64,000 nt of DNA from Narcine bancroftii (taxonomy: Eukaryota). This document shows, piece after piece, positions 1-50,398 of the stretch. The stretch lies in the NCBI RefSeq assembly GCF_036971445.1, contig NC_091477.1, positions 81,220,001 to 81,284,000 on the forward strand. The letters are read 5' to 3'. A model generated the notes under the pieces. That model made no database searches. It worked only from the letters and a program-made list of their open reading frames with translations, and was not told the DNA's origin. A program made the translations under genes and the position numbers. Within the stretch, counting starts at the first letter, position 1, and the number at the start of each line of letters is the position of its first letter.

Positions 1-375
1 AACAAGAAGGGGAGGTGTCCTTGTACTCCTGTTAGGTAAAACATCATGAGATGGGAATGTACAGGGCTGTAACAAGATGTAAATGCATCCTTGTACTTAC
101 AAGATAAGAGAGACATTGATGGATTGAGAGGCAGGAAGCTAGCAGGGAAAGGATAGCAACAGTTTTAGTCATTGGACAAGTAATGATATGATGATGTTCT
201 AAGCACGTATCCAAGGGTATAAAAAATCACCATTTTGCTGATAACGGCAGAATGCATTCTCCGACTAACTTTGTTAGTCGCAAGTGTTACAATCCGGTAA
301 TAAAGAACAAAGAACCCTGATTTCGACTCAGCCTGGTGTTTGTCTCACTCATTCATGAACAAAGCAGACCTAACA
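1..375 (+). mobile_element. 3' part of an LTR (truncated by window start)
   Basis: TATAAAAAA ~218, perfect hairpin CGACTAAC-ttt-GTTAGTCG 262-280, AATAAA ~299, ends ...CCTAACA at 375; no visible similarity to the ERV LTR at 5599-6320. Confidence 0.6.
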
Positions 376-505
376 ACCTTCACTTCCAATTTACCCATTG
401 CTCTCACTTTACATTACCCATCTCCAACACATACCTTTCCTTTCTTGAATTCTCTATCTTAAGATGTAGATTGGCAGTCAATATTAATTACAGCCCTCTG
501 AGTCC
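376..505 (+). mobile_element. Penelope-like element RT fragment
   Basis: Translation FTLPISNTYLSFLEFSI..RLAVNINYSP resembles the PLE RT motif FTxxISxTxLPFLDxSV..RLxTxIxYKPTD. Confidence 0.55.
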
Positions 506-3290
506 GTCCAAGCCCTACTGTGGCAGGGCATCATTACACCCACTGCCTTCAACAGTCCCATTTGGCCCATCTGCAAAAAGAAATGGGATGATGACAGTGG
601 ACTATAGACACCTCAACAACTGTGCCCCCCCCCCCCCCCACCTTGCTGCCACCGTGCCCAACATAGTTATCCTAGTGGAGGATTTTGTAGGGTGCCTAGA
701 TAAGCCTTGGTATGCAGTGGTGGACTTAGCCCATGCCTTCTTTGCAATTCCTCTCCATCCTGTTTCCCCAAGAGAAATTAGCATTTACCTGGGACTGGAG
801 AGAATATACCTCAAGGCTATATTCATAGCCCCTCTGCAAGGCACGTCAGACACCATTGTTTCAAAGGCTAATCTCCTCCCTCAGGGAACATGGCTACTGT
901 TAATATTGATAAGGTGCAGGGCTCCAACCAGAATATCCTGTTCCTTGAAATACAATGGCACTCAGGCCTTCTTGATACTTCCAAGACTGACACGAATAAA
1001 ATTTAGAATTTTGCCGACCCCTCAAATAACAGGCACTCAGAGCATTGTGGGCCTCCTAGGTTATTGGAGGCAGCATATACCCCATCATACCATGCTCCTT
1101 AGACTACTCTATAGGGTCTCCTGTCACATTCTTATGGGACCTGAACAACAGGCTGCTTTTGAAATAGCAAAGCTAGCTGTTGAACAGGCACTGCCACTTG
1201 CTCCTCACCAGGCAAGTGTTCCTTTTGAATTACAGGTCTCAGCCAGTGAGACAGTCAATGAAAGGACCATGTGGCAGAAGATCCAAGGGTACAGAGTCCC
1301 ACTCAGTTTCTGGACAATATCTCTGCCTAAGCCGCCGCCTGCTACAGGCCTTTTGAGTGTCAGCTGCTTGCAGGCTATCTGGTGCTCCCCGCCACTGAAC
1401 ATCAAACAGGCACCAACCCCGTTGTTCTTCACCCCCACCTACCCATAACGCAATGGTTCAAGTCTTCCGATTCCACTCACAAAGAGGGCCGTGCCCAGTG
1501 GTCCTCTACAGTAAAATGGAAGTGGTATATCACCGACTGAGCTGAACTCGGTCCGGAAAGGGTCAGCCACCTCTATGAGCAGGTCACGTCCTTCCCATAG
1601 TCCCATGACCCAGCCCCACAAATCTGAAATCCAACCAATACTTCCACTCCCTTGACCTCAAACAAAAATTGCCCAACTGGTTCACAGTCAGCTCCAGCCA
1701 ATGAAAAGGAGGGAAGAAGCAACATTGGAAAGCGGTGGCACTTCATCCCACCTTTCTGAAAATGTAACCAAATAGGGAGCAGATGGGTCCAGTTAACTTA
1801 CCAAGCTGGCAGCAGTAATGCTCAAGCTATGGGACACCACTGGGCTGGTCCACATTTATACTGACTCAATGGTATGGCAGTGTATGTAGATGGTGCAGTG
1901 GCATGAAATGGAGTGGGAAATTCATGGACATTCCCTCTAGGGACAGGAACTGGCATTTCTTTTGGGACAAGACAATCCACAGAAAAATGTCAGCGCACCA
2001 CGTGGATGCCCATACCCACAAAAATATTGAGGAGGCTATACCCAACGCTGCTGTGGACTAGGTTGCCCAAATATGCTGTGCCATTGCTTTCCCAGATGAA
2101 ACCGACCTCTGAGTTAGTTGTGTGGGCACACTGCAAAAGTGGACATCTAAGGGCTAATGGCACACAGCATTGGGCAGAGAAATTCAAGGTCACCCTGACA
2201 TTGGATCAACTCAGGACCACTGTTGCTAACTGCCGTGTCAGCAGGTGAAGCCACAGGGTTGGTCAACAGTGCCGCCGGGTCACATACGCTGTGGCACAGG
2301 AGTGGATCACGTATGGCAAATTGATTATATCAGACTGCTCCCACATCAAAATAAAAAAAAACAAGATGCCCTGATGATGGTGGACACATACTCCAGTGCC
2401 CTAGTAGCAGTGCCCTATGAGAAGGCTGGCCAGAATAACACCAAAGATTGCAGTATCTCTCTTCCATCTATGGGGGTCCCTTGGGAGGAACAATTCGATC
2501 CGGGGCTAAAGCTAAGAACTGGGGTAATGAGGCAGGGATCTCATGGCTATTCTTTCCACTTACCTTATAACCCACATTTTTTTTTCACTTCACCTGGCAG
2601 CTCATTCCTTACTCGCATGACTCTCAGTGTGAAGAGGTTCCCCCAAATGTTCCCCTTAAACTTTTCCCCATTAACCCAACACCCATGTCCTCTGGTTTGT
2701 ATCTCACCTACCCTCAGTGGAAAAAGACCTACTCTATCTATACTGCTCATAATTTTGTATACCTCTATCAAATCTCCCCTCATTCTTCTATGCTCCAAGG
2801 AATAAAGTCCTAATCTGTTTAACCTTTCTCTGTAACTCAGTACTTGCAGTCCCGGCAACATCCAACTAAATTTTATCTACGCTCTTTCAATATCCCACAG
2901 GCATAGATCTATTTGAGAGAATGAACAGCCTTCTTCAGAAAACATATGCACACCAACACCCTCCCGCACACTTCAGGGTTGATTGAGCATGTTGCAACAG
3001 GCCATTGACCAGATGAATACACAGTCCACTGGCAAAGGGAGGGGGCCCCGTTCTGTCCCATCATCTGGCACACTTCCCACCTCCTAACCTGGAAGACATT
3101 GAACCCCCCCGAGACTGAGAACTCGGGGAGAATACAGATACGACAGGCACAAACAAGGTCCAGAAGGGAGAAGTTGTTATGCGCAGTCCCAGGGATACCA
3201 GTTGGGTCGCGATTCTGGGTCAAACTAACCCGTCTTATCTGCATACCTGACAGCTGACCCAACAAGAATGAGTCTGCTCCTCAACCCCTC
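506..3290 (+). pseudogene. pol: ERV pol (RT-tether-RNase H-integrase), frameshifted
   Basis: FNSPIWP, MTVDYRHLN, WYAVVDLAHAFFAIP, QGYIHSP, GLLGYWRQHIPH, FELQVS..PLSFW, KWKWYI..GPE, VHIYTDS, zinc-finger WAHCKSGH..C, WQIDYI..VDTYS, ERMNSLL, all ERV-L/S-type wording. Confidence 0.85.
2577..2893 (-). mobile_element. CR1 LINE ORF2 C-terminal fragment inserted in ERV integrase
   Basis: MLPGL..LSYRERLNRLGLYSLEHRRMRGDLIEVYKIM..TRGH; A-tail (T-run 2577-2585); flanking direct repeat CCCACA at 2571-2576 and 2894-2899. Confidence 0.85.
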
Positions 3291-3783
3291 CACCCCCAAC
3301 AGGACAATGCCTTTACTCCAGTCATCTCTGCTGTTCAATGCAACGATCGGCATTGGGACATCAACCAACACCTTCCTCAGGGTTGCTTATAAATTTCCCA
3401 GCTCCACAAATTGACTGGACCGCTGGATTTGTGTGTGAACCCCCTGCACACACCAATGAAGCTCTGCAACTTATGCTGATCCCGCTGGATGACTTTGAGA
3501 TGAACTGTTTGCAGACTTTTCATTCCTGTGGAGTTTGGCATATCTGTTTGGGGGTGGGGGGGCCGGGGGGCAAATGGCAGTCCCCTACCACTCCCCTCAC
3601 CTCTACATAACATCTCTTCCAGCATTCCTGATGGGGTGGGTGCTTCAGGAACTGGTATTTCCCTTCTTGCAATTTGCCCTCCACCCCTGAGTTCTGACTC
3701 TCAGAGTCATTCCACAGCCAGTGAGCAGACCTAAGGAATGCTGGTGCAGGCTCCCAAATGAGCACGGTTCCAACTTTTCAGTC

Positions 3784-4048
3784 TGTGACAGTTTACGTTA
3801 TATTTTATATTCTATATAGAAATGTTTTAAAGGAGATAAATTGTGACATTTTCTTTATAGTGTAGGTCACATACAAACACTTCAAAACAGACCTCATTTA
3901 AAATGCCAGAGCTCTGCTCAAGCCAGACAGTTCAGGCTCCGGGTGCCTTTGCACAAACTTTGAAGAATGCCTATAATGACTTCACGAGTAGATGTCAATG
4001 GGACATGCTGTGGAGTAATGGATTATTGTTTTGGAAAGCAACAGATGA

Positions 4049-4087
<39 letters not shown>

Positions 4088-4751
4088 GGTGGGGGGGGAA
4101 GAGAGAATTCAGTTTCAGTTCTACAGTTCAGCAGCAGGGACTGGAACAGGACAAGCTGGCAAGCTTGTGGAAAAACCCCATTTTGAAGACAGGTTGAGAG
4201 TTCTTAGTTCAGCCTGGTCAAAGCCCTTGTGGTCCATACAAGAGGAGAGGACTGGCTGCCTAATATTTCACTTGAAATAAGGGAAACAAAAAGGAACTGC
4301 AGTGACCTGAAAGAAAGAGGTTGTCATCTGGAAAACCCTGATGGGGCAAGGTTTTTCGGCAAGACACTGAAGTGGCTGTTCAGAAGAAATCAGTTGTGGG
4401 TGACAACTGACAAGAACCTTCCTGAGCAGTAACCATTTACCTTTCAAGCCCTAAAGTCTGGTGAAATTAATAAACATTAAATTCTGTGCACAGTATAAGA
4501 CTTGCCTGATACCAGTGAACTTGGAGTGAGAAGTGAGATTGGACTGTGAATCAAAGAACTTTTCTGAACTTACACATGCATGCGCTTAGAATTAGAAGGG
4601 GGTTAAGTTAGGTTAAGTTAATAGTAATAAGATAAAGTTTGATCCTGTTTTCATGGTTAAAGATAACTAAAAGCAACTTTTGTTTAAGTAGCAATTTGTC
4701 TTGGTGAATTTTTCTCACTGTTGGGTTTTGGGGTCTTCTGGACTCATAACA
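3784..4751 (+). mobile_element. Solo LTR (~970 bp, probably Gypsy) inserted in env
   Basis: TGTGACAG...CATAACA termini, 4-bp TSD AGTC/AGTT, internal (GA)n; orientation not certain. Confidence 0.72.
4055..4086. repeat. (GA)n microsatellite
   Basis: Direct observation. Confidence 0.95.
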
Positions 4752-5598
4752 AGTTGCAGTGACTGTGAGTGAGACTGGTATCCAGATGCCCAGGACCACT
4801 GCTGATGTGCCGCTAAGCTGGGGACTCCCTGAACATTGAATGGAACCCTCTGGATTTGAGGCCACCATACCAACCCATGGTTCCCTGGGAGTTGGTACAG
4901 TTGCTGTTTTCCAGTGTTCGTGGTGCCCTACAACCTTGGGAGCACCTGGCATACAGCAGCCACCAGAGGGCCATTACAGAGGTGGAGAGGTTTTGGATGA
5001 TATCCTTTCCCAGGTATGTCATGACCCAATTGTCCCATAAAGTTATCAAGATGAACAGTGTGCTGGAGACGCTGGCCAACAAAACGGCAGTGGCACTGCA
5101 ACATACCGAAGATGCCCTAACTAAACGGCGACAGAGCTGATGGCTGTCAGGATGGTCGCCCTGCAGAATCAAATAGCCCTGGATTACCTGCTGATGGTAG
5201 TACCTGTGCAGTGATTGGTAAAGAGTGCTGCACATTTACCCCTGGTGAGTTAAAGTACATCTCCCACTTGGCTGCTAACATTCAGGACTCGATGGGTAAA
5301 ATTCAAAAATCCAGGGCCAGTTCCTCCAGTATGACATCAATTGAGTAAACTAGTGGTCGTTTGGGTATCTGGGGGGGTGGTGGGCAACTATCATCCACTG
5401 GGAGTTAGATTCTCATTGTGCTTGCTAGATTATCTAGAGCATGTCTGCCTATATATTAACATAGTTTTAAGCTTAGAAATAGTTGTAGCCATGATTTATT
5501 GGTCTGTTAAGGGCAAGACTTCTATTGCACTATGTGGGTTTTCCTTCACTGTATTCCACGTAATGATTGGTGAATGGTGTGACTTCCAAGGTGTGGAT

Positions 5599-6320
5599 TG
5601 TATCGTGGAGGGCCGTAGCGCTGCCTCCTACCTGGTCGGAAGGCACACCATCTGCCTCACCTATCAGCGCACAATTGACATTGGCCCCTGAAAGAACCTT
5701 TATATTTGGTCTTAGACCATTGGCCTTTGTAATCGACAACCTTGCTGGCACCGAGCCATTTGTACCTGTAAATTACCTGGGCAAGACAGTCCAGCCCGCC
5801 TGTACTTGGCCTTGGATCATTGGCTGTTGAGATTGATTAGTTCTTTGCTGGCACTGAGCCATTTCTCTGTAAATTACCTGGGCTGGACCCTCCAGCACTA
5901 TAAAGGTCACCAAGTGTGCTTGGCTCTTTCTCTCTTTGAGGGACCACCCTGCTTCACTCCAGACAGAGTACCGTGGAATGTTGCTGGAGAAATCATTGGT
6001 GAGGTGTGCACTGTTAAAGGGTTTTGAGCATTTTAGTTAGTGTACCTACTAATACAGAGCCGTGCCTGCAGTAAGTCAAGGGGTGGTGGGTATCATATTG
6101 TTTTTTCTCCTTGATTGTATGTACCTAGTTCGTTATGTGTGTGTATTTTATTCCTGGTGCAATTTTCCCACACTCTTCTATAAATTGTGCACGTGTGTTT
6201 TATTCTATTCCTGTTACCATTTACCCACTCTCATCTTTTATAAATAAAATGATTTACAACTAGACTGTGTTCAGAGCCCTTGCTCTGAGACCCATCAAAT
6301 CTGTTTTCTCACTCATAACA
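5599..6320 (+). repeat. ERV 3' LTR
   Basis: Begins TGTA right after the PPT, TATAAA ~5899, AATAAA ~6243, ends CATAACA; internal ~45-bp direct duplication at 5742-5787 and 5843-5888. Confidence 0.7.
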
Positions 6321-7595: not shown

Positions 7596-10500
7596 GAGCC
7601 ATTGTGGCGATCTGGTGAACACCGGGCTTGGCACTGCACCTCTTCTGCCATGTCGGGAATTAGATTGGGCGGGGGGGGGGGGGGGGGGGTGTGGGGCATA
7701 TTCATTAGCATATTGTTACAGACAGCCTACAAGCTGTCCGCAAAAATGTCTGGAGCTGCCACAGGAAAAATTCCCGTCAGGAAATAGCTTCTAACTCCTG
7801 TCTGGAACTTTTAACACAGCCAGCGTTGCAGGAATTTTCTGAGAGATTCCCATCATGCAGGAGCAGTGTAAAAAGCATTTATTTTTGTTTCATCAAGAAA
7901 TAGCAAAAGCACAGGATACAACAAAGGCTGTAGGAGAAGACAAAATCTCAATACAGATTTGAAGCCCTGTGATCCACAACTATCTTAAACCATTTCATTA
8001 AAATTGCAACATTACAATACTAATATCTACCCAAAATATGGAAAATTGTCCAGGTATGGCCTATTCAAAAAAAATCAAAACAAATCCAATTACCGCTTAC
8101 GTTCCTCAAACAATTAATGATGGAAGGCATCATTGCAGTGATCTGATGGTTGGCTCCTCCCCCAGGCTCCACCCTCATCTTCCCATATATAATCCAGGTT
8201 TTCCATCTAAATCCAGAGCCCTACTGAAGACATTTGTAAGACCTTACCCTTTGTTATAAGCTAATAAAAGCGCGTGTTCTCCCTCCAGTTGTGAGAGCTT
8301 TTATTCGCGCTACAATTTTATTAGCTTATTAACAAAAAGATGGAGACACTGCTCAAACCGAGCATGACCTCTGTCCCCAAATGCTGCTGAGGAGTTTGCT
8401 TACTGGCTGGACTGCTTCCAGGCCTACCTGAACGTGACCATGACCAGGTGCGTGTTCAATACTGATGAACTTGAGGTCAGCCTTTGTTTCCAGTGTAGGG
8501 ACTAAGTGGTATGCAGTCATTCAGGACTGTGCAACCTATGATGCTGCCATTGAGGCTTTGTACTTGAAGTCGCAAAACGAGGTCCTAGTGAGATATCGAT
8601 TTGCTTTACATCACCAGCAGCCTGGAGAGACAATCGATGACTATCTGCTTGACCTGTGGACTCTTGCCAAGAAGTGCCAGTATGAAGTGGCTATCAGCCG
8701 TGTTCGTGAGGAAAAGTCACGGGGTCTGCTCGAGATATGTGAGGCAGTGACTACTTGAGTCAGGTAAGAAAGACTTGCCCAACCAAGTCCATTGAACAAG
8801 CCCAGCTCAAGGCCGACGACCTTGAGGCCAACAACAACACTCTTCCCTGTGATCCCTTCCCAGAACCGGCAGCCCTCTCTGCCCTTGACCTAATGGCAGC
8901 CACCTCCCATGCTAGAGAGCACTCCCGCACTAGGGAGTGCTTCTTCTGTGGTAGAAGCCAGCATCCTCGTGCTCGCTGCCCACCTATGGACTGCCTGCTC
9001 CAGCTGAGGGAAGAGGGGACACTGGGCAAAAGTCTGCCACGTGAAGAGAACACCTAGGAAATCCACAGTCTGCACAGATCCCAAGTCAACTCCAGCCACA
9101 AGCCATCACACTCAACCCGAAACTCACCAGAGCCTACCTGCTGCGCTACTCGCCAAAGGAGGATGGCAATGGGAAAATGGCACGAAAATCCTCGGCGGCC
9201 ATCTTGCCGCGATTTGAATTCGAATTTAGCACCATCGTCATCAGAGGAGGAGGAAGGGTGGCCACCTTGCCGAGCAACGAGGTCAACGTCATCTTGCCTG
9301 CCGGTGCATCAGTAAGGAGGAGATTGCTTGAGCAAGGAGGACTACGGAGTCTCCAGGGTCCTAGCATTGATGGTTCTGGACCAAGAAAGACCACATCAAC
9401 TAGCAACTCTATAGCGACTGTCAAGGTAAACGGACACCCAACTAGATGCTTAATTGACACTGGCTCTACAGAAAGTTTCATAGACTCTCAGACTGTTTGG
9501 GAATACAAACTTAAACTTTATCCTCGTAATTATCGTATATTTCTAGTGTCTCATTTGCACTCGACTCGTATCCAAGAACTATGTACTGCACATTTATCTT
9601 TTGAAGGGGGGAATTTTGTAAATTTCGGTTGTATGTGCTTAATGATTTCTGTGCTCCGGTACTGTTGGGACTTCTTGTGTCTCCTTAAAAGCATGACCTT
9701 GGAGTATTCTGGTCCCCTCCCTCCCATAACAGCTCAGAATGGAAGGCCATTAAAATCAAATCCCACATGCAGCCTCTCCACACTTATCGATCCCCCACCC
9801 CTCTTCCCAAACCTGTCTCCAGATTGCAAGCTGATTGCTACAAAGAGTAGGCGGTGCAGTGCCTCTGATTGGGAGTTCATAAAAATCAGTGACTCAATGC
9901 TTGTTCAATGAGAAAATCAATGAACCTATAGCTTGTGGAGAGCGCTAGTGGTTATAGTAAAAGATAAAAATAAGTTCAGGGTAGTAATTAACTAGAGCTA
10001 AACAATTAATCATTTCATACTCCTGGACGGATATCCCCTTCCTCGAATTTCAGATTGATATCTGAATTATATTGCGCAGTATTTGAGCATCAACCTGAAG
10101 CATGCCTATCACCAGCTGCCAATCCGTTCCGAGGACTGTCCCTATATTGTTTTTAAGGCAAACGGTCGTCTCTTTCAATTCCTGCGGGTCCCTCTTGATA
10201 TTACCGATGGGGTTTCTATCTTCCAGAGGCAGATGGACAGGATGGTGGATGAGTACAAGTTGAAGGCTACCTTCCCTTACCTCGATAATATCATCTGTGG
10301 CCACACCTTGGAGGATCATAACACGAACCTTCAGAGCTTTCTCCACGCGGCAAAATCCCTGAACCTACATGGTGAAGAATGGTATTATTGGCCCCAACCC
10401 CGATAGGATGCGCCCCCTTTTAGAACTCCCTATTCCAAGGACCATGAAAGCTTTGAGGAGAAGCCTGGGGTTTTTCTCATATTACGCCCAGTGGGTCCCT

Positions 10501-11436
10501 CAATACGCCGATAAGGTTCGCCTCCTTTTAAAATTCACTAGCTTTCCCCTCTTGGCTGAAGCCCAAATGGCTTTTACTTATGTCCAAAGCCACATTGCAA
10601 AAGCCACCATGCACGCAGTGGATAAGAATGTACCTTTCCAAGTGGAAAGTGATGCTTTGGATGTGGATCTGGCCGTTACCCTTAATCAGGACGGCAGGCT
10701 AGTGGCATTTTTCTCCCGGACCCTGCAAGGGCACGAGCTCTGGAATCCCTCTGTGGAGCAAGAGGTTCAAAGTCATTGTGGAAGCACTATCTGGCTGGTA
10801 TGAAATTTACACTCCTCACTAACCAGCGCGCTGTCACCTTTATATTCAATGACGTTGAGGAGCAAAATTAAAAATGACAAAATTGATAGGTGGAGGTCCA
10901 AACTCTCCACCTACAATTATGACATTGCCTTATTGAGCCTCCAGATGCCTTATCCAGAGGAAGCTGTGCCTCAGCACATACCGGCCAACTGCCATTTCTA
11001 CATAATAAGCTCTGCCATCCAGAGGATATCCAAATGGCTCACTTTGTCAAGGCACACACAATCTGCCCTACTCAATGGAAGATATCAGGGAAATGACCAG
11101 GTCCTGCCAGGTCTGCGCAGAGTGCAAGCTGTAGTTCTACCACCTCGTTAAGGCGCACCTGATAAAGTCATCCCAGCCCTTCGAATGGCTCACAAATGGG
11201 AACACATTGATGAGTACTCCCATGTCCAGATACCTCCACCTCCTCAGTTATCAAGGCCCTAGATTCTATTTTTACCCTGGTCGAGTATCCCAGCTATATT
11301 CATAACAACTGGGACTCATCATTTATGAGCAAGGAGCTACGTCAGTACCTGTTGGCAAGGGGCATCGCATCCAGCAGGACTACTAACTACAACCCCTGGG
11401 GGAATGAGCAGGTTGAAAAAGAAAATGCCATGGTCT

Positions 11437-12238
11437 TTCTTTTTTCTTTGGCTTGGCTTCGCGGACGAAGATTTATGGAGGGGGTAAAAGTCCACGTCAG
11501 CTGCAGGCTCGTTTGTGGCTGACAAGTCCGATGCGGGACAGGCAGACATGGTTGCAGCGGCTGCAGGGGAAAATTGGTTGGTTGGGGTTGGGTGTTGGGT
11601 TTTTCCTCCTTTGCCTTTTGTCAGTGAGGTGGGCTCTGCGGTCTTCTTCAAAGGAGGTTGCTGCCCGCCAAACTGTGAGGTGCCAAGATGCACGGTTTGA
11701 GGCGATATCAGCCCACTGGCGGTGGTCAATGTGGCAGGCACCAAGAGATTTCTTTAGGCAGTCCTTGTACCTTTTCTTTGGTGCACCTCTGTCACGGTGG
11801 CCAGTGGAGAGCTCGCCATATAACACGATCTTGGGAAGGCGATGGTCCTCCATTCTGGAGACGTAACCCACCCAGCGCAGCTGGATCTTCAGCAGCGTGG
11901 ACTCGATGCTGTCGACCTCTGCCGTCTCGAGTACTTCGACGTTAGGGATGAAAGCGCTCCAATGGATGTTGAGGATGGAGCGGAGACAACGCTGGTGGAA
12001 GCGTTCTAGGAGCCGTAGGTGATGCCGGTAGAGGACCCATGATTCGGAGCCGAACAGGAGTGTGGGTATGACAATGGCTCTGTATACGCTTATCTTTGTG
12101 AGGTTTTTCAGTTGGTTGTTTTTCCAGACTCTTTTGTGTAGTCTTCCAAAGGCGCTATTTGCCTTGGCGAGTCTGTTGTCTATCTCATTGTCGATCTTGC
12201 CAGTTTACCTATCTCGGCTGCACCATTTCATCAGATGC
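11437..12238 (-). mobile_element. 5'-truncated RTE (BovB-like clade) LINE with 5' inversion, inserted in Gypsy A integrase
   Basis: RLPKIVLYGEL..GAPKKRYKDCLK..C-terminal zinc finger; GAA/A-rich tail; 12-bp TSD ATGCCATGGTCT at 11425-11436 and 12235-12246. Confidence 0.93.
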
Positions 12239-12298
12239 CATGGTCTAGAAACTGTCAAATTGATCCTCAAGCCAAGAGGCCTTCCAGACTCATGCTCC

Positions 12299-12507
12299 CA
12301 GGATGTCCTACCCATAGCGCTCCACACCTTTCGGTCGCTACTCTGTACAGCGACCAATGTGACTCTTCAGGATATCCTACCCATGGCGCTCCACACTTTT
12401 TGGTCGTTACTCTGTACAGCGACCAATGTGACTCTTCATGATGCCCTACCCATGGCGCTCCACGACCTTTCGGTCGCTATTCTGTACAGCGACCAATGTG
12501 ACTCTTC
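12299..12507 (+). repeat. 69-bp x3 tandem repeat within integrase coding sequence
   Basis: Unit encodes QDVLPIALHTFRSLLCTATNVTL; three copies, the third with a 1-nt insertion. Confidence 0.92.
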
Positions 12508-13814
12508 ATGAACTTTTCCTCAATTTTGAAACGAGATCGGCATCGGGAACCACTGTCCCCACCTGGCTCACCACATCAGAAGCAAAACCGACACCCTGGT
12601 GGAGAGGGTGAGACTGCTCCATGCCAATTCCATGTACACCTACACGGAGTACCAGGACGACAGGGAAGACACCGTCTCTATCAAGGACATGGTACCCGCA
12701 GGAACAGAGAATCCATTGCCTCAGGTGACCCACGAGTTCCAGAACCCTTTCTTACCACCTCCAATCAGGACCTCAGGAGATTTGGATCAGGAGGAAGAGT
12801 CCTCCCCCTCCGTCATGGAAACAGAGCCCTAACCATCCACCATGCCTCCCCTACAAGGGGACCAGGAGACCCAAGGCCCACTGGTGCTGAGGCACTCCTT
12901 CAGGATTTCCAGACCCCTGTAACATTTAAATTGTATATATTCTGATTTTTTTTTTTACTGAGTCTGTGTTCTCTGTCTTCATTCACAGGCCATAATTTTA
13001 CAGGATGGGGTGAATGCAGTGAATGGAGATGCACTGGTGATGGGTTGTGCAAATGACAGACTCCTCCCCCAGGCTCCGCCCCCATCTACCCATAACCCAG
13101 GTTTCCAGCCTGAACCCAGAGCTCTACTGAAGACCCTTGTAAGACCCTATCCTTTGTTATAAGCTAATAAAACATGTGTTCTCCATCCAGTCGTGGGAGC
13201 TTTTATTCATGCTTCAATCAACAACACTGACATCAAAACGCAGTCGCTCACCAAAGACCTGCCCACTAAAACCACATTTGGGTTTTCTCAACACAATTCT
13301 TTTCCTGAACAGATTGCAGATTTGATCAAGCTGGGAACAAACACCTTAATTATAAAGGTTAGGCAACACTGACCTACTTTGATATCAAGACAGCAATTGA
13401 CTAAGAATGGAGTCAAGACACCCTGATAAAACTAGTCAGTGAGACAAAACTAGACAGGACATTACAATGATCAGAACCATATGTTGCACTCAGAAAGATG
13501 TTTCTATGGTTAGTGAAAGTTAATCTCAGTCTCAAGAAATTAAGTACCACATAATTACTTTAGCACAAACCCGAAAGCACAACATCTATATTTCTTTCAT
13601 CAATGACCTTTCTTCCAGGTCAGATGTAGGGTGTTGGTTGATAATTGCACTGTTAAATTTCATTTGCAACTCCTCAGAAAATGAAGCAATCTATGCGATA
13701 TTCTAGGTGTGGAGTGATAGGTGACAGCTAACACTCAGGTTACCAGTGATAGGCAATAACCATCTCCTACAACAGAGGTGAAGCACAGGATTCTGTTGAC
13801 ACCATGGTTAAGTG

Positions 13815-19557: not shown

Positions 19558-22500
19558 TCACGTGTGACGCCATAAGAACAAGACTTGGGCTTACAGATAT
19601 CGGACAGAGGATGAAGACTCAGAAGAAGAGATAAAGAGTAAACAAAGTACTAGAATTGCTATATCTATGAAAAGAAATGACTATTAGTGAGCTGTTTAAT
19701 GTGAAGGGGGAAATAAGTAGTGTTGGAGGCTGTCAACAAGACGAAGAAAAAATTAAATTAGAAAATTCAATGAAGAGAGTACAAGAGGTTATGCAGCATG
19801 TTGAAGATAGAGTTACCACTGAGGAAGATACTACTACTACCTTAACAATGAAGAATAAGAAGCTGCAACAAAAATTGGATGTATTAGAAAATTTTAGTGG
19901 GAGAAATAATGTTAAGATTGTGGGTCTTAAAGAAGGTGTAGAAAAACAAGATACTCCTGCTTTTCTTTTGGAATGGCTCTCTGAAATGTTGGGAGCTGAA
20001 AATTTTGATCATCCTATAGAGATTGAAAGAGCACAGAGCTTTCAGACGTCCAGCTCTCTAATTCAAAACTCACATTCTATACTGGTAAAATGTCTTTGTT
20101 TTCAAGATAGAGAGAAGATTTTGTCAATGATAGCAGAAGATGAGATTGGCAGGGGTTCTGCTTGAGTACGAAGGTGCAAGAGTCTTATTTTTCCTGATAC
20201 AAGTGCTGATCTACTTAAAAGAGGAAGAGAATTCAACCCAGTTAAGAACGTTTTATGGGAGAAGGGATACATATCTGTTCTGCGCCATCCAGCGATGTTG
20301 AAGATTTTTATACCGGGGTGAAGGAAACAAATTATTTATGAATATGATGGAAGCAGTAGAGTATGCTTAGAGTCTCCCAATTATTCAGAAGGAGTGAAGA
20401 ATGAGGACTTCTTTTCATCCTGGTTGATTTTTGACGAATTGCTCGCTTTGCTTTCACAGCAAGGAGTGATTTAAAATGCTTTACATTGATTTATTCTTTT
20501 CTATCCTTATATTTATCTACTATTAATGTGATGTATGTTTTTTTTAACTGAAGTTTGAAGTAAGATTTGATGGTCAAATGTATCAGAGGGTTAGGGAGAG
20601 TAGGGTTCTGACCTCTGGTGCGTCATGTGGGTAGTCGTGACTCTGGTCAAGGCCCGTAAAATATTTTCTCTCAACGCCTATTGAGAGGAATTTTTTTTCT
20701 ACTTTTTTTTTAATAGTTATATGTATTTTTATATACAAGTTTCTTTCTTTTTTCTATTGCATCTGGATTGTCGGAGGGGAGGTTCTTGAGTATGCTGGCT
20801 TTTTTCTACAATAACATTAAGGAGTGAAGAATTACAGGCAGAGGTGGAAGAAATATTGAAACAGGAAGATGAGAATGTGCTTAAACTCAAATTATATTGT
20901 TAATGGTTTAAATGGGACCGTGAAGACGAAAAGGGTTTTGAGGTATTTTTAAAAAGTTAGGTATAGATATAGTTTTTTTTACAAGAAACGCTTCAAACAG
21001 AAAAAGAACATTTGAAGTTAAAAAGAGACTGGGTTGGACATGTAGTAGCTTCCTTTAATTCTAAAGAGGAGTGGTTATTTTAATTAAAAAGAATATACCA
21101 ATTAAAATACAAAATGCAGTGCTAGATCCAGCAGAAAGCTATGTAACAGCTCATTGTCAAATACTTTCAGAATTATGGACATTTCTTAATATCTACACAC
21201 CAAATGCAGATTATGAGAGATTTATCAAAGAGACCTTTATGAATTTAGCAGAAGCACATGACAATATTTTGATAGGAGGAGATTTAAGTTTTAGTTCAGA
21301 TCAAATCTTAGATAGAACTACAAGGGGAATGTCAAGAACAAAAGCAGCAAAAGCAACCTTGGTTTAGATGAAAGATCTGAATTTAATAGATGCTTCGAGA
21401 AAAATTCATCCTAGAGAAAGAGACTATGTGGCGGCAAGCTACTAGGCAGGCGACTCAGCCCCGCTTGTAATCCACGCGGCGGGGTAGCCAGCCAAAATGG
21501 CGCCATCAGAGGTTTCCCCTTCTCAGCACCGGGCTCAGAAGCCCGTGCTGGGGGACCACATGACGCCCGAGTGACGTCGGCGCCCCCCAGCACGGTTCCC
21601 AGCCAGGTCCGGGCTGGGAGTACAAGTCCATCCCAGAAGCCAGCAATAAACCAGTTTTCTGCTCACTGAGCTCAACCCGTCTGGTTGTGTGTTCTTTCAG
21701 TAGCAGTGTAGCTGCTGCTACAACTATTCCTTTTATTCAAATAGGCATAATTCTTATTCTAGAATAGATTTGTTTTTTAATATCTGTTTAATTAAAAGGT
21801 AGGATATTGAGTATGGAATATAAAATGAAAATATTGTCAGATCATTCATCTTTGTTAATGACAATTACAAATTACAAATAAAAATTGGTATATAGATGGA
21901 GATTAAACTCAACATTATTAAAAAGGAAAGATTTTTATGACTTTGTTAGAAATCAAATTCAATTGTGTGATACGAACAAACAAGGTCGAGAATAAATTTC
22001 TAATTTGGGATGCATTAAAAGTGTATTTGAGAGGTCAAATTATAAGATGTGGAGATGAAATGGGCACTTTTTTTAAATACACACTCTATTTGGTCATGTT
22101 CAAAGGTTAGAATTTTTTGGGAGGATCAGGGAATGTTTTTGGGACAAATTACTCGTATTACTTTTCTACAAAATCCAGACCTATTTTTGTTGGGGAACCT
22201 TGCAGGAACAAGACCTAAATTTACTAATTCATCAAGATAAATTTGTTAAAATTGCTTTCGTGGTGGCAAGAAAGTGTATCAAAGTGACCTGGAAATCAGA
22301 CATATACTTAGGTATGGAAAGATGGCATTCGGAGATACAAGCATGTATTCCCTTAAAGAAAATTATTTTCAATTTAAGAAATAAATATTCTCTCCTTGTG
22401 CAGATCTGGAGCCCATATATGCAAAGGTTAGGAATAATTTTTTTTAAAAAGTACTTCTGGCCTCCTAAGTCAGTATTAATCTTCTTCCCTGAAAGTCACA

Positions 22501-41934: not shown

Positions 41935-44900
41935 AGCCCTTTTTATAGAGTGACACTGCATTGAAGCCGGCTCAATGAGGAAAAAAAAAAGGACATCCCT
42001 TTTAAGGTGAAGGTCTACAAAGCTGATTGTGGTGTACTGTTAGCCAGAATCAGACACACACAAGGTAAAGACTGGACAACAGACTTTAATCCACAAAGAC
42101 TTCCACAGAGCCAGGCTGGCTGTGGCTGCAGCAACTCTGAGTGAGGCCTCAGGAGGCCGGCGCAGGCTTATATCCCGGTGGGTGATTGACACTCGACTGG
42201 GTGGGGCTTGATCCATTCAGGCCGATTGATTGACAGCACCCGTAGTGCTGCAGGTATAGAGGTTGCCCCCTGCAGTAGGCCGGTGGTGTACCACCACATT
42301 CACCCCCTTCTTTAAAATTGTCCTGGGGAGGGGGGAGGGCAGCAACAAGGAATCGCACCCACTATGTACATACAATATTTACAGGTTGAGACGATTGGGC
42401 GGCCGCTGGGGTCTCTGTGACCGTCGTAGGACTGGCTCCTGGTCACTGGTCAGATGGGAACTGGGGGGGGGGGGGGGGAGGGGCTGGCAGCAGGGGTGTG
42501 TGGCTGGTCGTATTGGATGGGTGGGGGGGCCGGTTCATCTTGTAAGGCTGAAGTGGGCCACTGGCGGTCAAGGAGGCCCTGTGTGCCCCATAGCTGCCTG
42601 GGGACAGGGATGTATGCCCAGTCAGCGTTGAGTTGGAGGGTGGTGTGGTGTGTGCTCCTGCTGGTGACAGGTCCCTGGTTGAGACGGTGTCCTCCCTGCC
42701 ACTGCTGAACCCAACGTAAGCATAGTTATGGTTTGCATGAAGGAGGAAAATCTGCTCTACCAGGGCTTCAGCCTTGTGTGTCCGTACATGCTTACGCAGA
42801 AGCACCGATCCCGGGGATGTGAGCCATGCTGGGAATGTCATTCCAGTCGCCGACCTCCTGGGGAATGAGAACAGGCATTCGTGAGGGGTCTTGTTGGTAG
42901 CCAAACACAGCAGTGACCGAATGGCACGGAGTGCCTCGGGCAGGGCGTCCTGCTAGTACTCAACGGCCCACCCTTTTGACTTGAGAGCCAGGAGGACTGC
43001 CTTCCAGACTACCCAATTCTCACGTTCCACTTGCCCGTTGCCTCTTGGGTTATAGCTTGTCGTGCGACTGGTCGCAATGCCCCTCGCCATCAGGTACTGG
43101 TGCAGCTCGTCACTCATGAAACTAGACCCCTGGTTGTTGTGGATGAAGGTGGAGTAGCCAAACAGTGAAAATCTGCCCCAAGGCCCTGATGACGGTATCC
43201 GTGGAGGTGTCCGGACAAGGGATGGCGAAAGGGAAGCATGAATACTCGTCCACTACCGTGAGGAAGTAGACGTTTCGGTTCATGGAAGGCAGGGGCCCTT
43301 TGAAGTCCATGACAAGATGCTTGAAAGGCCGAGTAGCATTTACAACGTGGGCTTGGGTGGGGGGGGGGGGGGGGGGGGGCTGAAGAAGCGGGGTTTGCAC
43401 TCCGCACAGACCGACAGGCCTCGGTCATGTCCCTGACGGTGTACGGCAGATTTCAGGACTTAAAGAAATGGTACAACCAGGTGACGCCAGGATGGCAGAG
43501 AGAGAGACTAAAAATGCCTGCAACCTGTCATCATGAATAGCTGTATTCATGCTGTAGGTTGCCAACTGGACTCTCCAGTGCAGGATCTTGTCTTTCTTGA
43601 TCTTGCTCTTGTGGGTAGTGTTAAACATGGTCTGTGAGGAGCGTGAATCTCCTGCCGGCCAGGTAGTGGCGCCAGTGGCAGACCGCTTCCACAATTGCCT
43701 GGGCCTCCTCTTCAATGGCTGAGTTCCCTAGCTTGGAGCCGTGGGGGGTCCTGGAGAAGAAGGCGACGGGGCGTCCCCTTTGGTTGCGGGTAGCAGCGAG
43801 AGCCACCTCGGAGGTATTGCTCTCCACCTGGAAGGGGAGTCTTCATCCACAGCCTGCATTGTGGCATCCGCGATGTCTTGCCTGATGCAGGTGAAGGCTG
43901 CCTGTGCCTCAGGTGGGAGGGGAAAAAGTTGTGGCTTGAGCCAGAGGGCGGACTTTGCCCGAGAAGCAAGGAACCCACTGCGAATAATAAGAGAACAGGC
44001 CCAGGAACCTGCGGAGGGCCTTTAGCTTGAGGGGGGTGGAGGGGTAACTCCATTAATGGGCGCATCCTTTCTGGATCTGGGCCTACGAATCCATGGGCCA
44101 CGATGTATCCCAGGATGGCAAGTGGGTGGTGCTGAACACACACTTCTCCTTGTTGTAAGTGAGGTTCAGCTCCGTGGCCATCTGGAGGAATTTTTCCAGG
44201 TTAGCATCGTGGTCCTGCTGGTCACGGCCACAGATAGTGACGTTATCCAGATATGGAAACGTCACCTTCAGCTTGTGCCGGTCCACCATGTGATCCATCA
44301 CCCGCTGGAAGACAGAGACCCCGTTCGTGACCTCAAAAGGAACGTGGCGGAACTGGTACAGGCACCCGTCTGCCTCAAAGGCAATGTAGGGCTTGACCTT
44401 CGGGTGGATAGGAATTTGGTGATACGCAAACTTCAGGTCAATCGTGGAGAAAACCCGGTAGTGGGCTATCTCATTGACCATGTCGGTGATCCTTGGCAGG
44501 AGGTAGGCATCCAGCTGGGTGTACCGATTAATGGTCTGGCTGTAATCCACAACTATCCTCGGCTTACTTTCCTCTTTGACCACCAGGACTTGGGCTCTCC
44601 AAGGGCTGTTACTGGGCTCTATAACGCCTTCCGCAGGAGTCGCTGCTCCTCCGCCTTGATGAAGTCCCTGCCTGCAGTGCAATAGCGCCTACTTCTGGCG
44701 GCAATTGGCTTGCAGCCTAGCACAAGATGTGGAAAGAGTGCCAGTGGGGTGATGCGTAGTGTGGAGAGGCCGCTGGTTGGCCGGGGCTGGTAGGTTGGCG
44801 AGCTTTGCAATGTGAGTGGAGGTTGGGGTAAGGGTGACACTCTGCAGGTGGCACTGGAAATCCAGGCCCAGGAGGAGTGGTGCGCAGAGTTTGGGCATGG

Positions 44901-47494
44901 CCAAGAGCCTGAATCCTGTGTAAGTCTCCCCTCCCAACGTTATATCGACCGAGGAGCACCAACAGTCTTATCCTTGGCGGCGAGGGCGATCGAGCAGGTA
45001 GTGGGGTGGACCTTTAACCTTAGAGAGCGGGCCACGCTCAGGTGAATGAAGCTCACAGTGCTGCCACTGTCCAACAGGCACTTTGTTACCTGCCCATTGA
45101 CTCGCACGTCCATCATCGAGCGCCCGAGGTCGTGGGGAATGTCCCTGGTCAGCGTGGTGGCAGCCAGGAGCGTCTCGGAGTTGTCACTATCCGGAGGGGT
45201 GGGGAGTGTCAATAGGGCGGCCTGGTCATCGCCCGTGTTGACCACGTCGTTCTCAATGTCGTCGGGGGCCCTCCACGTCGGGTGCTATTGGCCCAAGATG
45301 GTGGGACATGTGGGGGGACGCTGCATGGCTGGCCTCCTTCCCCAGTTGTGTCCGCTGCACTGCGGGAAATGACTTCATCACGGCTGGCGACAGTGACGTA
45401 GTTACGTCAGTCAGAAGTAATGTCACGCCATGAGCTGGAAGTGATGTCGCTGTAGTTCTCAGTGAGCAGTGCCAGCGAGGGCGGGGGCTGGTGCAGATAC
45501 TCAGGGCACATGCTGTGACGGTCGCTGGTGGGGCCGGATGTTGCGTGGTCCAAGTCGGTGAAGGGGGAAGTCGTCGCGGGGACAATGGCGCCGCCCGGCA
45601 CGCACACATAGGGGGGTCCGCAGGGGAGGACATAGAAGACCGCTGAGCTGCCGGCAGGTTTACAGAGGCACACTTTTGCAAAGTGGTCTTTCTTGCCGCA
45701 TTGGGAACAATACTGGTTGCTAGCTGGGCAGTTTTGGCACGATCGTCAATCTGACCCACACCAGGACCCACAGTACTTACAGGGACGCCGGGTGCCTGCC
45801 GCAGCTACGTTCTCCTCCCCAGCTTCGCTTGGGGCTGCAGCTGGAGTGTGAGAAGCCCATGAGGGAGCCTGGGAGAACTTGGAATCGAAGGTTTTGACGT
45901 GCAGGGCTGCTGCTTCCATGGTTTGGACCACTTCCACAGTCCTGGTTAGGGCATAGATGTTGTCTTCCAGCAGCTTCTGCCGGATGGCCCTCGAGCATAG
46001 CCCTCAGATGAAGGTGTCCCAGATCAGCCTCTCAACCTCCTCTACACCTACCCCAGGTTCAGCTAGACATGGTCGGGCCAACTCTCGCAAGTGTCTCAGG
46101 TAAGACTCAGCCATCTCCCCGGGTTGCTGGGCTTGGATGTTGAGGAAGTACATTGATGGGGGGCTTGTACAAGTTCTCGAGAGTGTCCATTGCGCTCTTG
46201 TACGTAGAACAGCCTTTGGTTACCTGGAAGGCGCGGGGACCCGCTTTGAATGGAGTAGGACCAACCTCTTCTGATTGGAGTCCAGGATGTCGACCTCGTC
46301 TGCCTTGACCATGTACTGCCAGATCTCGAAGCATGACTGGGCTTCCGGGTGGTGTGGGTAAACCTTGAGGCTCCCTGAGCGCAGGAGTTTTTCCATAGCC
46401 ACCGTGGGAAAATTTGTGGATTAAATTGTGGTGCGCTGTTAGCCAAAATCAGACACGCACAAAGTAGACTGTACAACAGGCTTTAATCCACAAAGACTTC
46501 CACAGAGCAAGGCTAGCTGTGGCTGCAGCAACTCTGAGTGAGGCCTCGGGAGGCCGGCGCAGGCTTATATCCCGGAGGGTGATTGACACCCAACCGGGTG
46601 GGGCTTGATCCATTCAGGCTGACTGATTGACAACCGGCCAGGTGTTGTCCTGTCTTCTTACACTCCTGAAGGTACAGAGGTTGTCCTCTGCAGTAGGCCG
46701 GTGGTGTACCACCACACTGATCCAGTGTTGCCTTTATGGAAAGCAGCTTTGGAAGCCATCCTCCAGAGCTGAGGGAGGTGGGCGAGTGGTGCAGTAGTGC
46801 TGCCTGTCGACATGACATCAAACATATGCACCAAGCAATGGCCATCTTTGTTACCCATAATCCCCCATGCAGCTGACATTGCTCTGTCAGTGCCAGGGCC
46901 AGGGAAATGAAGAGCAATTTCAGCTGCGTGGGGGATTATGGGTAATGAAGACAGCCATTGATCCCGCATTAAAGGAAAAAGAGGTTCTCGTTATAAAACC
47001 TGAGGCTCCTTCTTCCAATCTTCTGCCCAGCATTTACAGGTGGCAGCTTGAGTTATTTGAGGTCATTTCACTTTTGTAATCAATCTGATTTTCTGCTGTT
47101 TGTGGTATTTAATGTGCTCTTGGGTATTTTAATAAAACGTGATCAACACTGAAATCAAGGCTGAGCTCCACAGTGGGACACATATGCATGGCCCTCGGTC
47201 TCTCCATAATCAGCAGCACACTAGGCTGTGACACCCCGAGCTATTCCCAGCACCAGTGAGAGCCCTGGATGGTGGCTCCTGGGTCACAGGCTGACTGCAT
47301 AATTGTGACATCATTAGCCTGCCCCTTTACAGCCACTTGCAGCTGCACTGCCTTTATGGAGGAGTGCACCCTCAGGACAGATCGGAGTTCGCGTGTAGAA
47401 TCCACCCTCTGAGCTTTAATGAAGATAAGTTAAGCAATGTAAAGGCAGAGAATATCCGCATTTACACTTGCTATTTTCTCACTATAAAAAGGCC
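41935..47494 (+). mobile_element. Harbinger-like family 2 element split by Gypsy B
   Basis: TIRs AGCCCTTTTTATAG and CTATAAAAAGGCC; the halves (41935-42027, 46717-47494) are collinear with 18030-18638. Confidence 0.65.
42028..46716 (-). mobile_element. Gypsy LTR retrotransposon B (decayed; YLDN lineage)
   Basis: 5' LTR 46427-46716, 3' LTR 42028-42298; perfect 5-bp TSD CTGAT; PPT AAAGAAGGGGGTGAA; gag MEKLLR; PR LLDSGSTVSF; RT SPWRAQV..IDLKFAYHQIP..FPYLDNVTICG; RH GRPVAFFSRT; IN MDFKGPLP..VDEYS. Confidence 0.95.
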
Positions 47495-47538
47495 GTAAAA
47501 TATCACAAAGAAAGGACCACTTCTAGTCTACCATGTTG

Positions 47539-48916
47539 TCTTCTTCTTCTTTGGCTTGGCTTCGCGGACGAAGATTTATGGAGGGGGTAAAAAGTCCACG
47601 TCAGCTGCAGGCTCGTTTGTGGCTGACAAGTCCGATGCGGGACAGGCAGACACGATTGCAGCGGTTGCAAGGGGAAATTGGTTGGTTGGGGTTGGGTGTT
47701 GGGTTTTTCCTCCTTTGCCTTTTGTCAGTGAGGTGGGCTCTGCGGTCTTCTTCAAAGGAGGTTGCTGCCCGCCAAACTGTGAGGCGCCAAGATGCACGGT
47801 TTGAGGCGTTATCAGCCCACTGGCGGTGGTCAATGTGGCAGGCACCAAGAGATTTCTTTAGGCAGTCCTTGTACCTTTTCTTTGGTGCACCTCTGTCACG
47901 GTGGCCAGTGGAGAGCTCGCCATATAACACGATCTTGGGAAGGCGATGGTCCTCCATTCTGGAGACGTGACCCATCCAGCGCAGCTGGATCTTCAGCAGC
48001 GTGGACTCGATGCTGTCGACCTCTGCCATCTCGAGTACTTCGACGTTAGGGGTGTAAGCGCTCCAATGGATGTTGAGGATGGAGCGGAGATAACGCTGGT
48101 GGAAGCGTTCTAGGAGCCGTAGGTGGTGCCGGTAGATGACCCATGATTCGGAGCCGAACAGGAGTGTGGGTATGACAACGGCTCTGTATACGCTTATCTT
48201 TGTGAGGTTTTTCAGTTGGTTGTTTTTCCAGACTCTTTTGTGTAGTCTTCCAAAGGCGCTATTTGCCTTGGCGAGTCTGTTGTCTATCTCATTGTCGATC
48301 CTTGCATCTGATGAAATGGTGCAGCCGAGATAGGTAAACTGGTTGACCGTTTTGAGTTTTGTGTGCCCGATGGAGATGTGGGGGGGCTGGTAGTCATGGT
48401 GGGGAGCTGGCTGATGGAGGACCTCAGTTTTCTTCAGGCTGACTTCCAGGCCAAACATTTTGGCAGTTTCCGCAAAGCAGGATGTCAAGCGCTTTAGAGC
48501 TGGCTCTGAATGGGCAACTAAAGCGGCATCATCTGCAAAGAGTAGTTCACGGACAAGTTTCTCTTGTGTCTTGGTGTGAGCTTGCAGGCGCCTCAGATTG
48601 AAGAGACTGCCATCCGTGCGGTACCGGATGTAAACAGCGTCTTCATTGTTGGGGTCTTTCATGGCTTGGTTCAGCATCATGCTGAAGAAGATTGAAAAGA
48701 GGGTTGGTGCGAGAACACAGCCTTGCTTCACGCCATTGTTAATGGAGAAGGGTTCAGAGAGCTCATTGCTGTATCTGACCCGACCTTGTTGGTTTTCGTG
48801 CAGTTGGATAATCATGTTGAGGAACTTTGGGGGACATCCGATGCGCTCTAGTATTTGCCAAAGCCCTTTCCTGCTCACGGTGTCGAAGGCTTTGGTGAGG
48901 TCAACAAAGGTGATGT
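47539..48916 (-). mobile_element. RTE LINE, 5'-truncated, with open RT reading frame (ORF 47601-~48915)
   Basis: FVDLTKAFDTV, GVKQGCVLAP, LLFADD, C-terminal C2H2-like motif; (GAA)n tail; nearly identical to 11437-12238. Confidence 0.95.
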
Positions 48917-50398
48917 TACCACCATCCTCTATAATCAAGATCAACAAGAAACTGTGTCGCTTTCCATTTCCTGAGTGCCACCTTTCAATAACTGCAGTCA
49001 AAGACAAAATTCTACAGTCATTCCAGTGCATGAGCACAGTCAATTAAAGCATTTGAAAACCAAGTCCTTGACATTACATCGATTTTAGTTAATTGAACAA
49101 TACCCTGCTCGTGTCTGTTTCAGACGGAAATCCTAGGCATCTCGGACCAGGTATTCCTTCTTTAGCAGGAGAGGCAAACAACCCCTACTTTAAAGTACTG
49201 ATCACACTCAACTAGCCCACCAAGTCAATCAGTTGCCTGAATTCGTACTCCTGAAACAAGAACTTTTTCTTCAACTTCCAGGAGGAATGAGCAATATCTA
49301 AAAAGTAATTATTGGTCTCAATTCAAAAAATGACATCTTCATTGAGCATGGGAATCCATTGCTCATAAATACTAAAAGAAGAGCAGAAACATCTGGAATT
49401 GAGCAAGTCCAGGCTAACAGAGATCTCATCCCATTCTTCTATAATCTGATGTGAGCATATAGAAATCATATACAAAGGATTGAAAAAATGAACCACGAAG
49501 ATATGTCACTCAACTTAGCCAAGCAGAGTGAAACACAAAAGTCTGTCGATGTTATGACTGTAGTAAAAGCACAAAGAAATGCTGGAGGAACTAAGGGCTT
49601 TGATCTGAAACTTCCTAAGGATGCTGCAAGACCAGCTGAGTTCCTCCAACATTTCTGTGTGTTCTGATCCAACAGTAGGGTCTGCAGACTCTTGGGCTAT
49701 TTAAGAACTTAAGGAAAAATTTTGTTCTGAACCACAAAGGAGTTCTGAAAAGACTTTCTGCCACCAAACCAACATTATTCCACTTTTCGTGAATCCAATA
49801 GGCTTCAACTAATAATTATATCACTTGTGACCTTGTTAAACAACTTGCTAACGATCCACATATACACTAAATGTTTTATCTTCAAACTTCCTCATTACCA
49901 AAGCTTCAATTCAGACAGATTCTTCTTTAACAAATCCAAGCGGACTGTCCTTGATCAACTGGTACCTCCCTAAATAGTGCTCTATGCCTCTCCTTATAAT
50001 GTTTGCAAATGTTTGCTCACAACCACTACAAACTAATTACCTGAATGATGAAGAGATCATTCATCTTGATAACCATGGTATCTCATCAACAATTTCAGTC
50101 TTTTGGCATCATGGTTGCTATAGATGACACTTTCCAGGTTCTAATATATCCTAATTTCAAAACGTGTTATCTTCAAGGAAACGTGGGCTACAATATTCTG
50201 AATTACTATCTTTTTAATCAACTAAACCAAACTTTGTAGATGCAGCTTTATGTGGCTTTAATTCATTGATAAAACAGATAAACATTTTGCAAAAGTTCAC
50301 ATTGAGATTTTCATAACAATGTACTGTATTTAAAACTATAACAATATTTAACTTTAGAGATATACAAGAAGAAATAAGACAAATTCAAAGAAAATTAC

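Follow-up and report, generated by a model that had tools for sequence, protein, structure and literature searches.

The window, as we call the whole 64,000-nucleotide stretch of DNA analysed here, contains two decayed Gypsy elements, element A on the plus strand (8134-13216) and element B on the minus strand (46716-42028). Their features are as follows.

8134..8314, plus strand: 5' LTR of element A, TG...CA, placed by alignment with 13015-13216; flanking duplication ATCAT/ATCAA
8186..8192, plus strand: TATA box (TATATAA) of element A, from the sequence, its retention in family copies and a spacing scan; inferred start site near 8215
8250..8269, plus strand: LTR arm of element A, the predicted primer; perfect core 8256-8269, AATAAA at 8263-8268
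8270..8310, plus strand: post-arm stem of element A, from folding; begins at the first base after the predicted cut and recurs across families
8315, plus strand: unpaired +1 A of element A, between the LTR end and the primer site
8316..8336, plus strand: putative primer-binding site (PBS) of element A, complementary to the arm; core 8316-8329
8340..13001, plus strand: decayed gag-pol of element A (gag-PR-RT-RH-IN), RT motif YLDN, split by a LINE-like fragment
13002..13014, plus strand: polypurine tract of element A, from the sequence
13015..13216, plus strand: 3' LTR of element A; its arm is identical to the 5' arm and has no partner downstream
46427..46716, minus strand: 5' LTR of element B; TATAAG at 46569-46564, predicted start site near 46539
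46482..46494, minus strand: arm of element B, ending in ATTAAA
46413..46425, minus strand: putative PBS of element B; 13-bp core, gag ATG at 46396
42028..42298, minus strand: 3' LTR of element B; target-site duplication ATCAG

The LTR segment of element A at 8250-8269, TTTGTTATAAGCTAATAAAA, recurs as its reverse complement at 8316-8336 with one extra T, as the original prediction had stated. The two strands form about 20 bp overall with one bulge, and the uninterrupted core (8256-8269 with 8316-8329) is 14 bp long, a length reached in 0 of 5000 shuffles of the 30 nt that follow the LTR; the duplex energy was reached in 0 of 1000. The base at 8315 is unpaired. The gag ATG lies at 8340, as first described. 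This copy is dead, because its gag frame is broken, with a stop after 16 codons. The same design had been claimed for element B, and this minus-strand element does carry it: its duplex is 13 bp long, ends in ATTAAA and was matched in 0 of 5000 shuffles. Most of 30 family A copies retain the arrangement. Of positions 1-13, an average of 12.1 are paired in the 27 of these 30 copies that were scored, and 12.6 in 25 of 25 family B copies.

The pairing was also said to continue inward (AGCGCG/CGCGCT). Folding predicts a GCGCG/CGCGC stem there in element A, but its sequence is specific to the family, and other families share only some stem at that place. A further hairpin is predicted for family A, in which 8297-8305 in U5 complements the poly(A) signal at 8263-8271; it could form in the 3' LTR as well.

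Several other features of the window were recorded. The 5' LTR of element A lacks two 13-nt stretches that are found in its 3' LTR when the two are aligned. A LINE-like fragment (11428-12260) interrupts the element, with a 97% identical stretch 36 kb away (47531-49043), and its integrase region holds three tandem copies of 69-70 nt (12299-12506). Decayed retrovirus-like pol and env fragments and LTR-like stretches, recognized from sequence alone, occupy 321-6320. A third Gypsy element, at approximately 61,450-64,000, was considered as "Gypsy B" and ruled out by its TGG site and by LTR complementarity of at most 4 bp; it was used as a negative control. Its gag start resembles that of CsRn1/Kabuki, and a related solo LTR lies 40 kb away, at 21430-21723. 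The RT catalytic motif is YLDN, not YxDD, in both A (10270-10295, plus strand) and B (44128-44631, minus strand), and in 97 of 121 proteins of collected relatives. The motif and the duplex are not tied, because relatives with YLDD (L069, L073, L090 and L098) keep the duplex. A literature search for YLDN turned up no paper with the term.

To describe variation in the duplex, we assembled 34 family representatives, one natural copy per distinct duplex, selected for showing the duplex. Mis-anchored decayed or duplicated ray copies (L141, L133, L188, L153, L195 and L148) were dropped from this set, as were L199, L152, L151, L186 and L100, and eight loci were added. In this set, chosen for the duplex, Watson-Crick pairs fill 438 of the 442 cells for positions 1-13, compared with 8875 of 14586 (61%) when partners are swapped between families, a statistic that is inflated by relatedness among the representatives. 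At positions 7-13, 234 of 238 cells pair, compared with 3955 of 7854 swapped. The PBS 13-mers are nearly all different (33 distinct among 34 families), and most columns contain three or four pair types. Arm and post-LTR stretch thus show compensatory changes across very divergent families, the covariation looked for under the original prediction. Chance as the source of the duplex is rejected by the shuffles for A and B and by the pairing in the 34 families.

The register is as constant as the pairing. The duplex starts 2 nt after the CA of the LTR, which is where a primer normally sits. In 32 of 34 families CA terminates the LTR, and in 29 GCC or ACC comes after the arm; 31 families have A at +1, and in 33 the +1 base is unpaired. 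Pairing drops at position 14 (26/34) and again at position 15 (17/34). The end of the arm lies 23-69 nt before the end of the LTR. A 4-bp stem closes at the first post-arm base in 23 of 34 families, compared with 5.0 ± 1.9 (maximum 13) in 2000 shuffle runs. This significance belongs to the position-anchored test only; a per-family shuffle test for any adjacent stem was not significant. Position 10 of the duplex is G in 29 of 34 families, wherever the hexamer falls, and the base before it is usually A or T. It resembles an initiator, but could also act as a ruler for a nuclease or RT or contribute to stability.

The poly(A) signal is less constant. In 23 of 34 families, A and B included, the arm contains the canonical AATAAA or ATTAAA. 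It is missing from the arm of the other 11, of which 3 have a hexamer farther downstream, beyond the duplex. Families such as L075 (TGAAGA, with a compensated PBS), L055, L084 and L098 keep the pairing without the hexamer. The invariant is the pairing, not the poly(A) hexamer. The original description, of a design built on the poly(A)-signal segment, holds for the pairing and is weakened as regards the signal itself.

These data bear on the possibility that the duplex has no role but to mask the poly(A) signal of the 5' LTR, or to act in packaging or in the control of translation, while something else primes. HIV-1 primes with a tRNA and has its polyA hairpin at both ends, whereas the partner strand here is the PBS, at the 5' end only. 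The likeness lies in the AAUAAA held within a stem, which according to the account in PMC2645353 regulates polyadenylation. Folding also predicts an occluded hexamer at the 5' end, next to the PBS, and a more accessible one when the PBS is absent, the mean unpaired probability at the hexamer position in the 34 families being 0.06 with the PBS and 0.56 without it. Since the hexamer is predicted to be occluded, 5' masking is a plausible second role where a hexamer is present. It is at most a second function, because the 11 families without the hexamer keep pairing and register, and the fact that they still pair favours priming over masking. Masking would leave the fixed start at +2 and the unpaired +1 base unexplained, and a duplex with a sharp 3' edge one base from the LTR suits the need for a primer, not a masking hairpin. 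No alternative primer site was found in these elements. We regard masking without priming by the arm as improbable.

The original prediction also held that elements A and B dispense with a tRNA, and the screen agrees. None of the 34 families has a PBS that begins with TGG, and in all 19 of the 19 families screened an anchored match to host tRNA 3' ends, of which 11 anticodon classes were available, extends over no more than 1 nt. Behind the 5' LTRs of elements A and B there is likewise no TGG or tRNA site, with an anchored match of at most 1 nt to the same 11 classes. A different use of host tRNA would be priming by a tRNA fragment other than the 3' end, with the LTR arm as a copy of that fragment. 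One family of 19, L070, has a PBS (119-131) that complements both the D-loop of tRNA-Thr and its own LTR arm over 13 nt. The other 18 of 19 match tRNAs internally over 8 nt or less, judged against the tRNAs of the window's host, an incomplete set, and the 33 distinct PBS 13-mers each follow their own LTR. Fragment priming is a very improbable account of the group as a whole.

Whether the paired segment is the 5' end of the transcript is central to how these elements would work. In Tf1 the first 11 nt of the RNA are described as the primer, released by RNase H cleavage (PMC7175516, PMC4600332, PMC5341516). If the elements described here were ordinary in this respect, transcription would begin at the 5' edge of the arm, the first 11-14 nt would be cut off as primer, R would be very short and the poly(A) signal would coincide with the primer only incidentally. 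Of 50 gag-anchored ray copies scanned, 36 have at least 11 of the 13 positions paired. In 30 of these 36 a TATA-like motif precedes the arm end by 78-100 nt, and in one by 31-60 nt; the copies are not independent, because about 15 belong to one subfamily. An initiator-like motif is present at TATA+29 to +32 in A, B, L162, L145 and the non-ray family L062, which points to a start site 45-58 nt upstream of the arm end in these five. The motifs in the ray families thus place the probable start site some 35-45 nt ahead of the arm, which makes it unlikely that the transcript begins with the paired segment.

Other observations are compatible with the ordinary Tf1 arrangement. In L084, an invertebrate family with an 11-bp duplex, TATATA and TTAGTT place the start at duplex position 11, which is the Tf1 geometry. 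Many families carry an initiator-like A/T-G-T at duplex positions 11-9, and duplex length is near the 11 nt given for Tf1 in PMC7175516. The upstream promoter motifs of the rays argue against it, as does the continued pairing at position 12 (31 of 34 families) and position 13 (34 of 34); in 24 families position 13 is T, on which transcription would rarely be expected to start. In most invertebrate-type LTRs the TATA scan gave no call. Three contig sets presumed to derive from RNA, which carry no information on transcript ends or strand, had no poly(A) end among the contigs listed and were left out of the evidence. We consider a Tf1-type start unlikely for the group. The claim that the paired segment is not the transcript 5' end stands, as probable, for the ray families on promoter spacing, but L084 fits the ordinary geometry.

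The reading we favour, and think probable, is that these elements are a Gypsy clade with Tf1-like cut-and-prime initiation from inside the 5' R, with no tRNA. Transcription would begin about 45-60 nt upstream of the 3' end of the arm, which would place the arm inside R. The 5'-R arm would fold onto the primer site across 23-69 nt, with a second stem closing at the junction, and a nuclease, by analogy with Tf1 the RNase H of the RT, would cut after ...AAA to leave a 3'-OH one base from the LTR edge. Minus-strand strong-stop DNA would then copy the post-arm LTR only, and the strand jump to the 3' end would rely on the few nucleotides that separate AAUAAA from the poly(A) site. The duplex would mask the 5' poly(A) signal while the 3' copy, without a partner, would stay exposed. 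Cleavage and priming, and the internal origin of the primer, are deductions from the arrangement. The jump homology would be short, less than 25 nt and less than 23 nt in L081, which counts against the model.

A longer homology, 45-60 nt rather than less than 25, would be available if the arm of the 3' R were the primer. The 3' end of the RNA, cut or trimmed to ...AAA, would anneal to the PBS and loop the genome, so that initiation and first transfer become one intramolecular fold-back. The arm of the 3' LTR is identical, and all 34 arms end in A, like a trimmed tail. However, the 5' arm is just 23-69 nt from the PBS and would pair first, and L075 pairs GA, not pure A, at the end. A canonical hexamer with a GU-rich sequence implies cleavage downstream of the arm, so priming from the 3' R would still need an extra cut. 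We know of no LTR element that closes an RNA loop with a 3'-end poly(A)-signal arm as primer, and think this route marginally less probable still than the Tf1-type start. Self-priming by some route, whichever it is, we judge very likely.

If the primer templates the PBS, changes in the arm should be inherited by the PBS. A young ray family, in which 106 of 120 retrieved copies have both LTRs, is informative in this respect. Positions 1-14 of its PBS are unchanged in 103 of the 106 two-LTR copies, while positions 15-16 vary by sublineage (45, 36 and 9 copies) as the arm stays unchanged; this pattern limits the working duplex to about 14 bp. L051, which is 99% identical to its siblings, shows a single substitution shared by the arms of its two LTRs, together with the complementary base in the PBS, a combination to be expected if the PBS is copied from the primer. 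L298 and L382 have arm variants in both LTRs with an uncompensated PBS, which fits first-generation errors under the model and equally fits the absence of templating. Compensation in one of three both-LTR arm variants (L051 versus L298 and L382) is suggestive only. No compensated variant was found among the 106 two-LTR copies of the young ray family, and no true compensated event among the scored copies of the older families A and B (27 of 30 and 25 of 25, respectively). Five compensated events flagged in L030 proved to be a register slip.

The RT of element B matched 942 proteins in a protein search, and the labels among the 120 matches listed include rays, sharks, Trichuris, Ischnura, Oculina, Xenia and Petrolisthes. 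An alignment of 20 intact proteins was used to retrieve 71 loci from metagenome and MAG contigs, of which 45 contain the gag start. When the longest inverted repeat ahead of gag was sought without bias, the design was recovered in strict form in 39 of the 45; the count is 44 of 45 if one mismatch or a split contig is allowed: L041, L044 and L046 keep the register with one mismatch, and in L073 and L090 the design is visible across contig ends. The sole locus without it, L080, seems to lack a 5' LTR. Design-bearing loci range from 44% to 91% in RT-RH identity to the reference protein. The design is found throughout a quick tree (midpoint root, one distant outgroup, two rows omitted, no Tf1 or sushi sequence), in which the named animal proteins are nested among design-bearing loci. 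By this nesting alone, the Trichuris, Ischnura, Oculina, Xenia and Petrolisthes elements are predicted to share it; spread at the level of phyla is suggested to that extent, since the named proteins were placed by tree nesting and not by named DNA. Scans of viral contigs found no relatives. L093-L100 are animal-type LTR retrotransposons inside bacterial MAG contigs, probably through host contamination of the assemblies.

The elements are abundant in the host of the window, where one LTR-PBS junction motif has 1,835 exact matches. The 112 N-terminal residues of a protein labelled Narcine bancroftii occur identically in this genome and mark the young family, G000, with at least 150 genome matches, many in long open frames. 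Its LTR pairs are near-identical (72 of 106 identical over 150 nt). In the G000 protein a tandem repeat rich in Ala and Thr separates gag from protease, and the ORF is not of the same length in all copies.

Classification within Ty3/Gypsy is straightforward. Elements A and B, and their relatives, have TG...CA LTRs, a 5-bp target duplication and a polypurine tract; three intact relatives show the domain order PR-RT-RH-IN in Pfam, and the best match among solved structures is Ty3 Gag-Pol (E = 3e-73). An integrase chromodomain was absent from all three proteins scanned (Pfam, E ≤ 0.001), and we therefore do not file these elements with Tf1/sushi, though their working would be Tf1-like. To our knowledge self-priming has been proven for Tf1 alone, and is otherwise predicted for chromovirus relatives and a few plant lineages. 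In the relevant passages of PMC6317226 and PMC3601003 it is attributed to Tf1/sushi or chromoviruses, Tcn1 and plant TAR copia elements.

The resemblance to Tf1 and Tf2 of Schizosaccharomyces pombe, to Tj1 and to Tf1/sushi chromoviruses, as these are described in PMC7175516, PMC4600332 and PMC5341516, is that no tRNA is used, the PBS complements the element's own LTR and a cut-and-prime step is predicted. Unlike in Tf1, the segment is 13-14 nt long, usually includes the poly(A) signal and, in ray families, is predicted to be internal to R. The predicted plant self-primers Tcn1 (gypsy) and TAR (copia) likewise have a post-LTR/LTR match of at least 10 nt, but belong to other lineages and hosts, and the sections of PMC6317226 that treat them mention no poly(A)-signal overlap or internal-R geometry. 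Cigr-1, among metazoan Gypsy elements, is of comparable size to the present ones, with short LTRs, a single ORF and a 4-5 kb element. Mag has similar proportions (short LTRs, a single gag-pol ORF, 4-5 kb) in the size data of PMC11117352, and this likeness to Mag/Cigr-1 is by description only. No statement on the PBS of the Mag/Cigr-1 lineage was found in the accessible portions of PMC11117352, PMC6238403 and PMC8556966; the supplements of PMC6238403 that were available give element names and accessions only, and a term search of the available text of PMC2774666 gave zero matches. We found no published account of a PBS that pairs with the poly(A)-signal segment, though subscription papers or Repbase notes could contain one.

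That the structure is real and clade-wide is well supported. The original reading is partly supported: the arrangement is tRNA-free, conserved and compensated, and the arm in rays is probably not the 5' end, but the poly(A) signal is not invariant and L084 has the Tf1 geometry. What is likely new is a variant of self-priming in a chromodomain-less, non-chromovirus clade of animal Gypsy elements. Self-priming would thus be extended to an abundant animal clade, whose labels include cnidarians, a nematode, arthropods and cartilaginous fish. Its geometry is likely unlike that of Tf1, and one duplex could both supply the primer and block premature polyadenylation. Such elements would escape control by tRNA fragments at the PBS, and PBS finders based on tRNA miss them.
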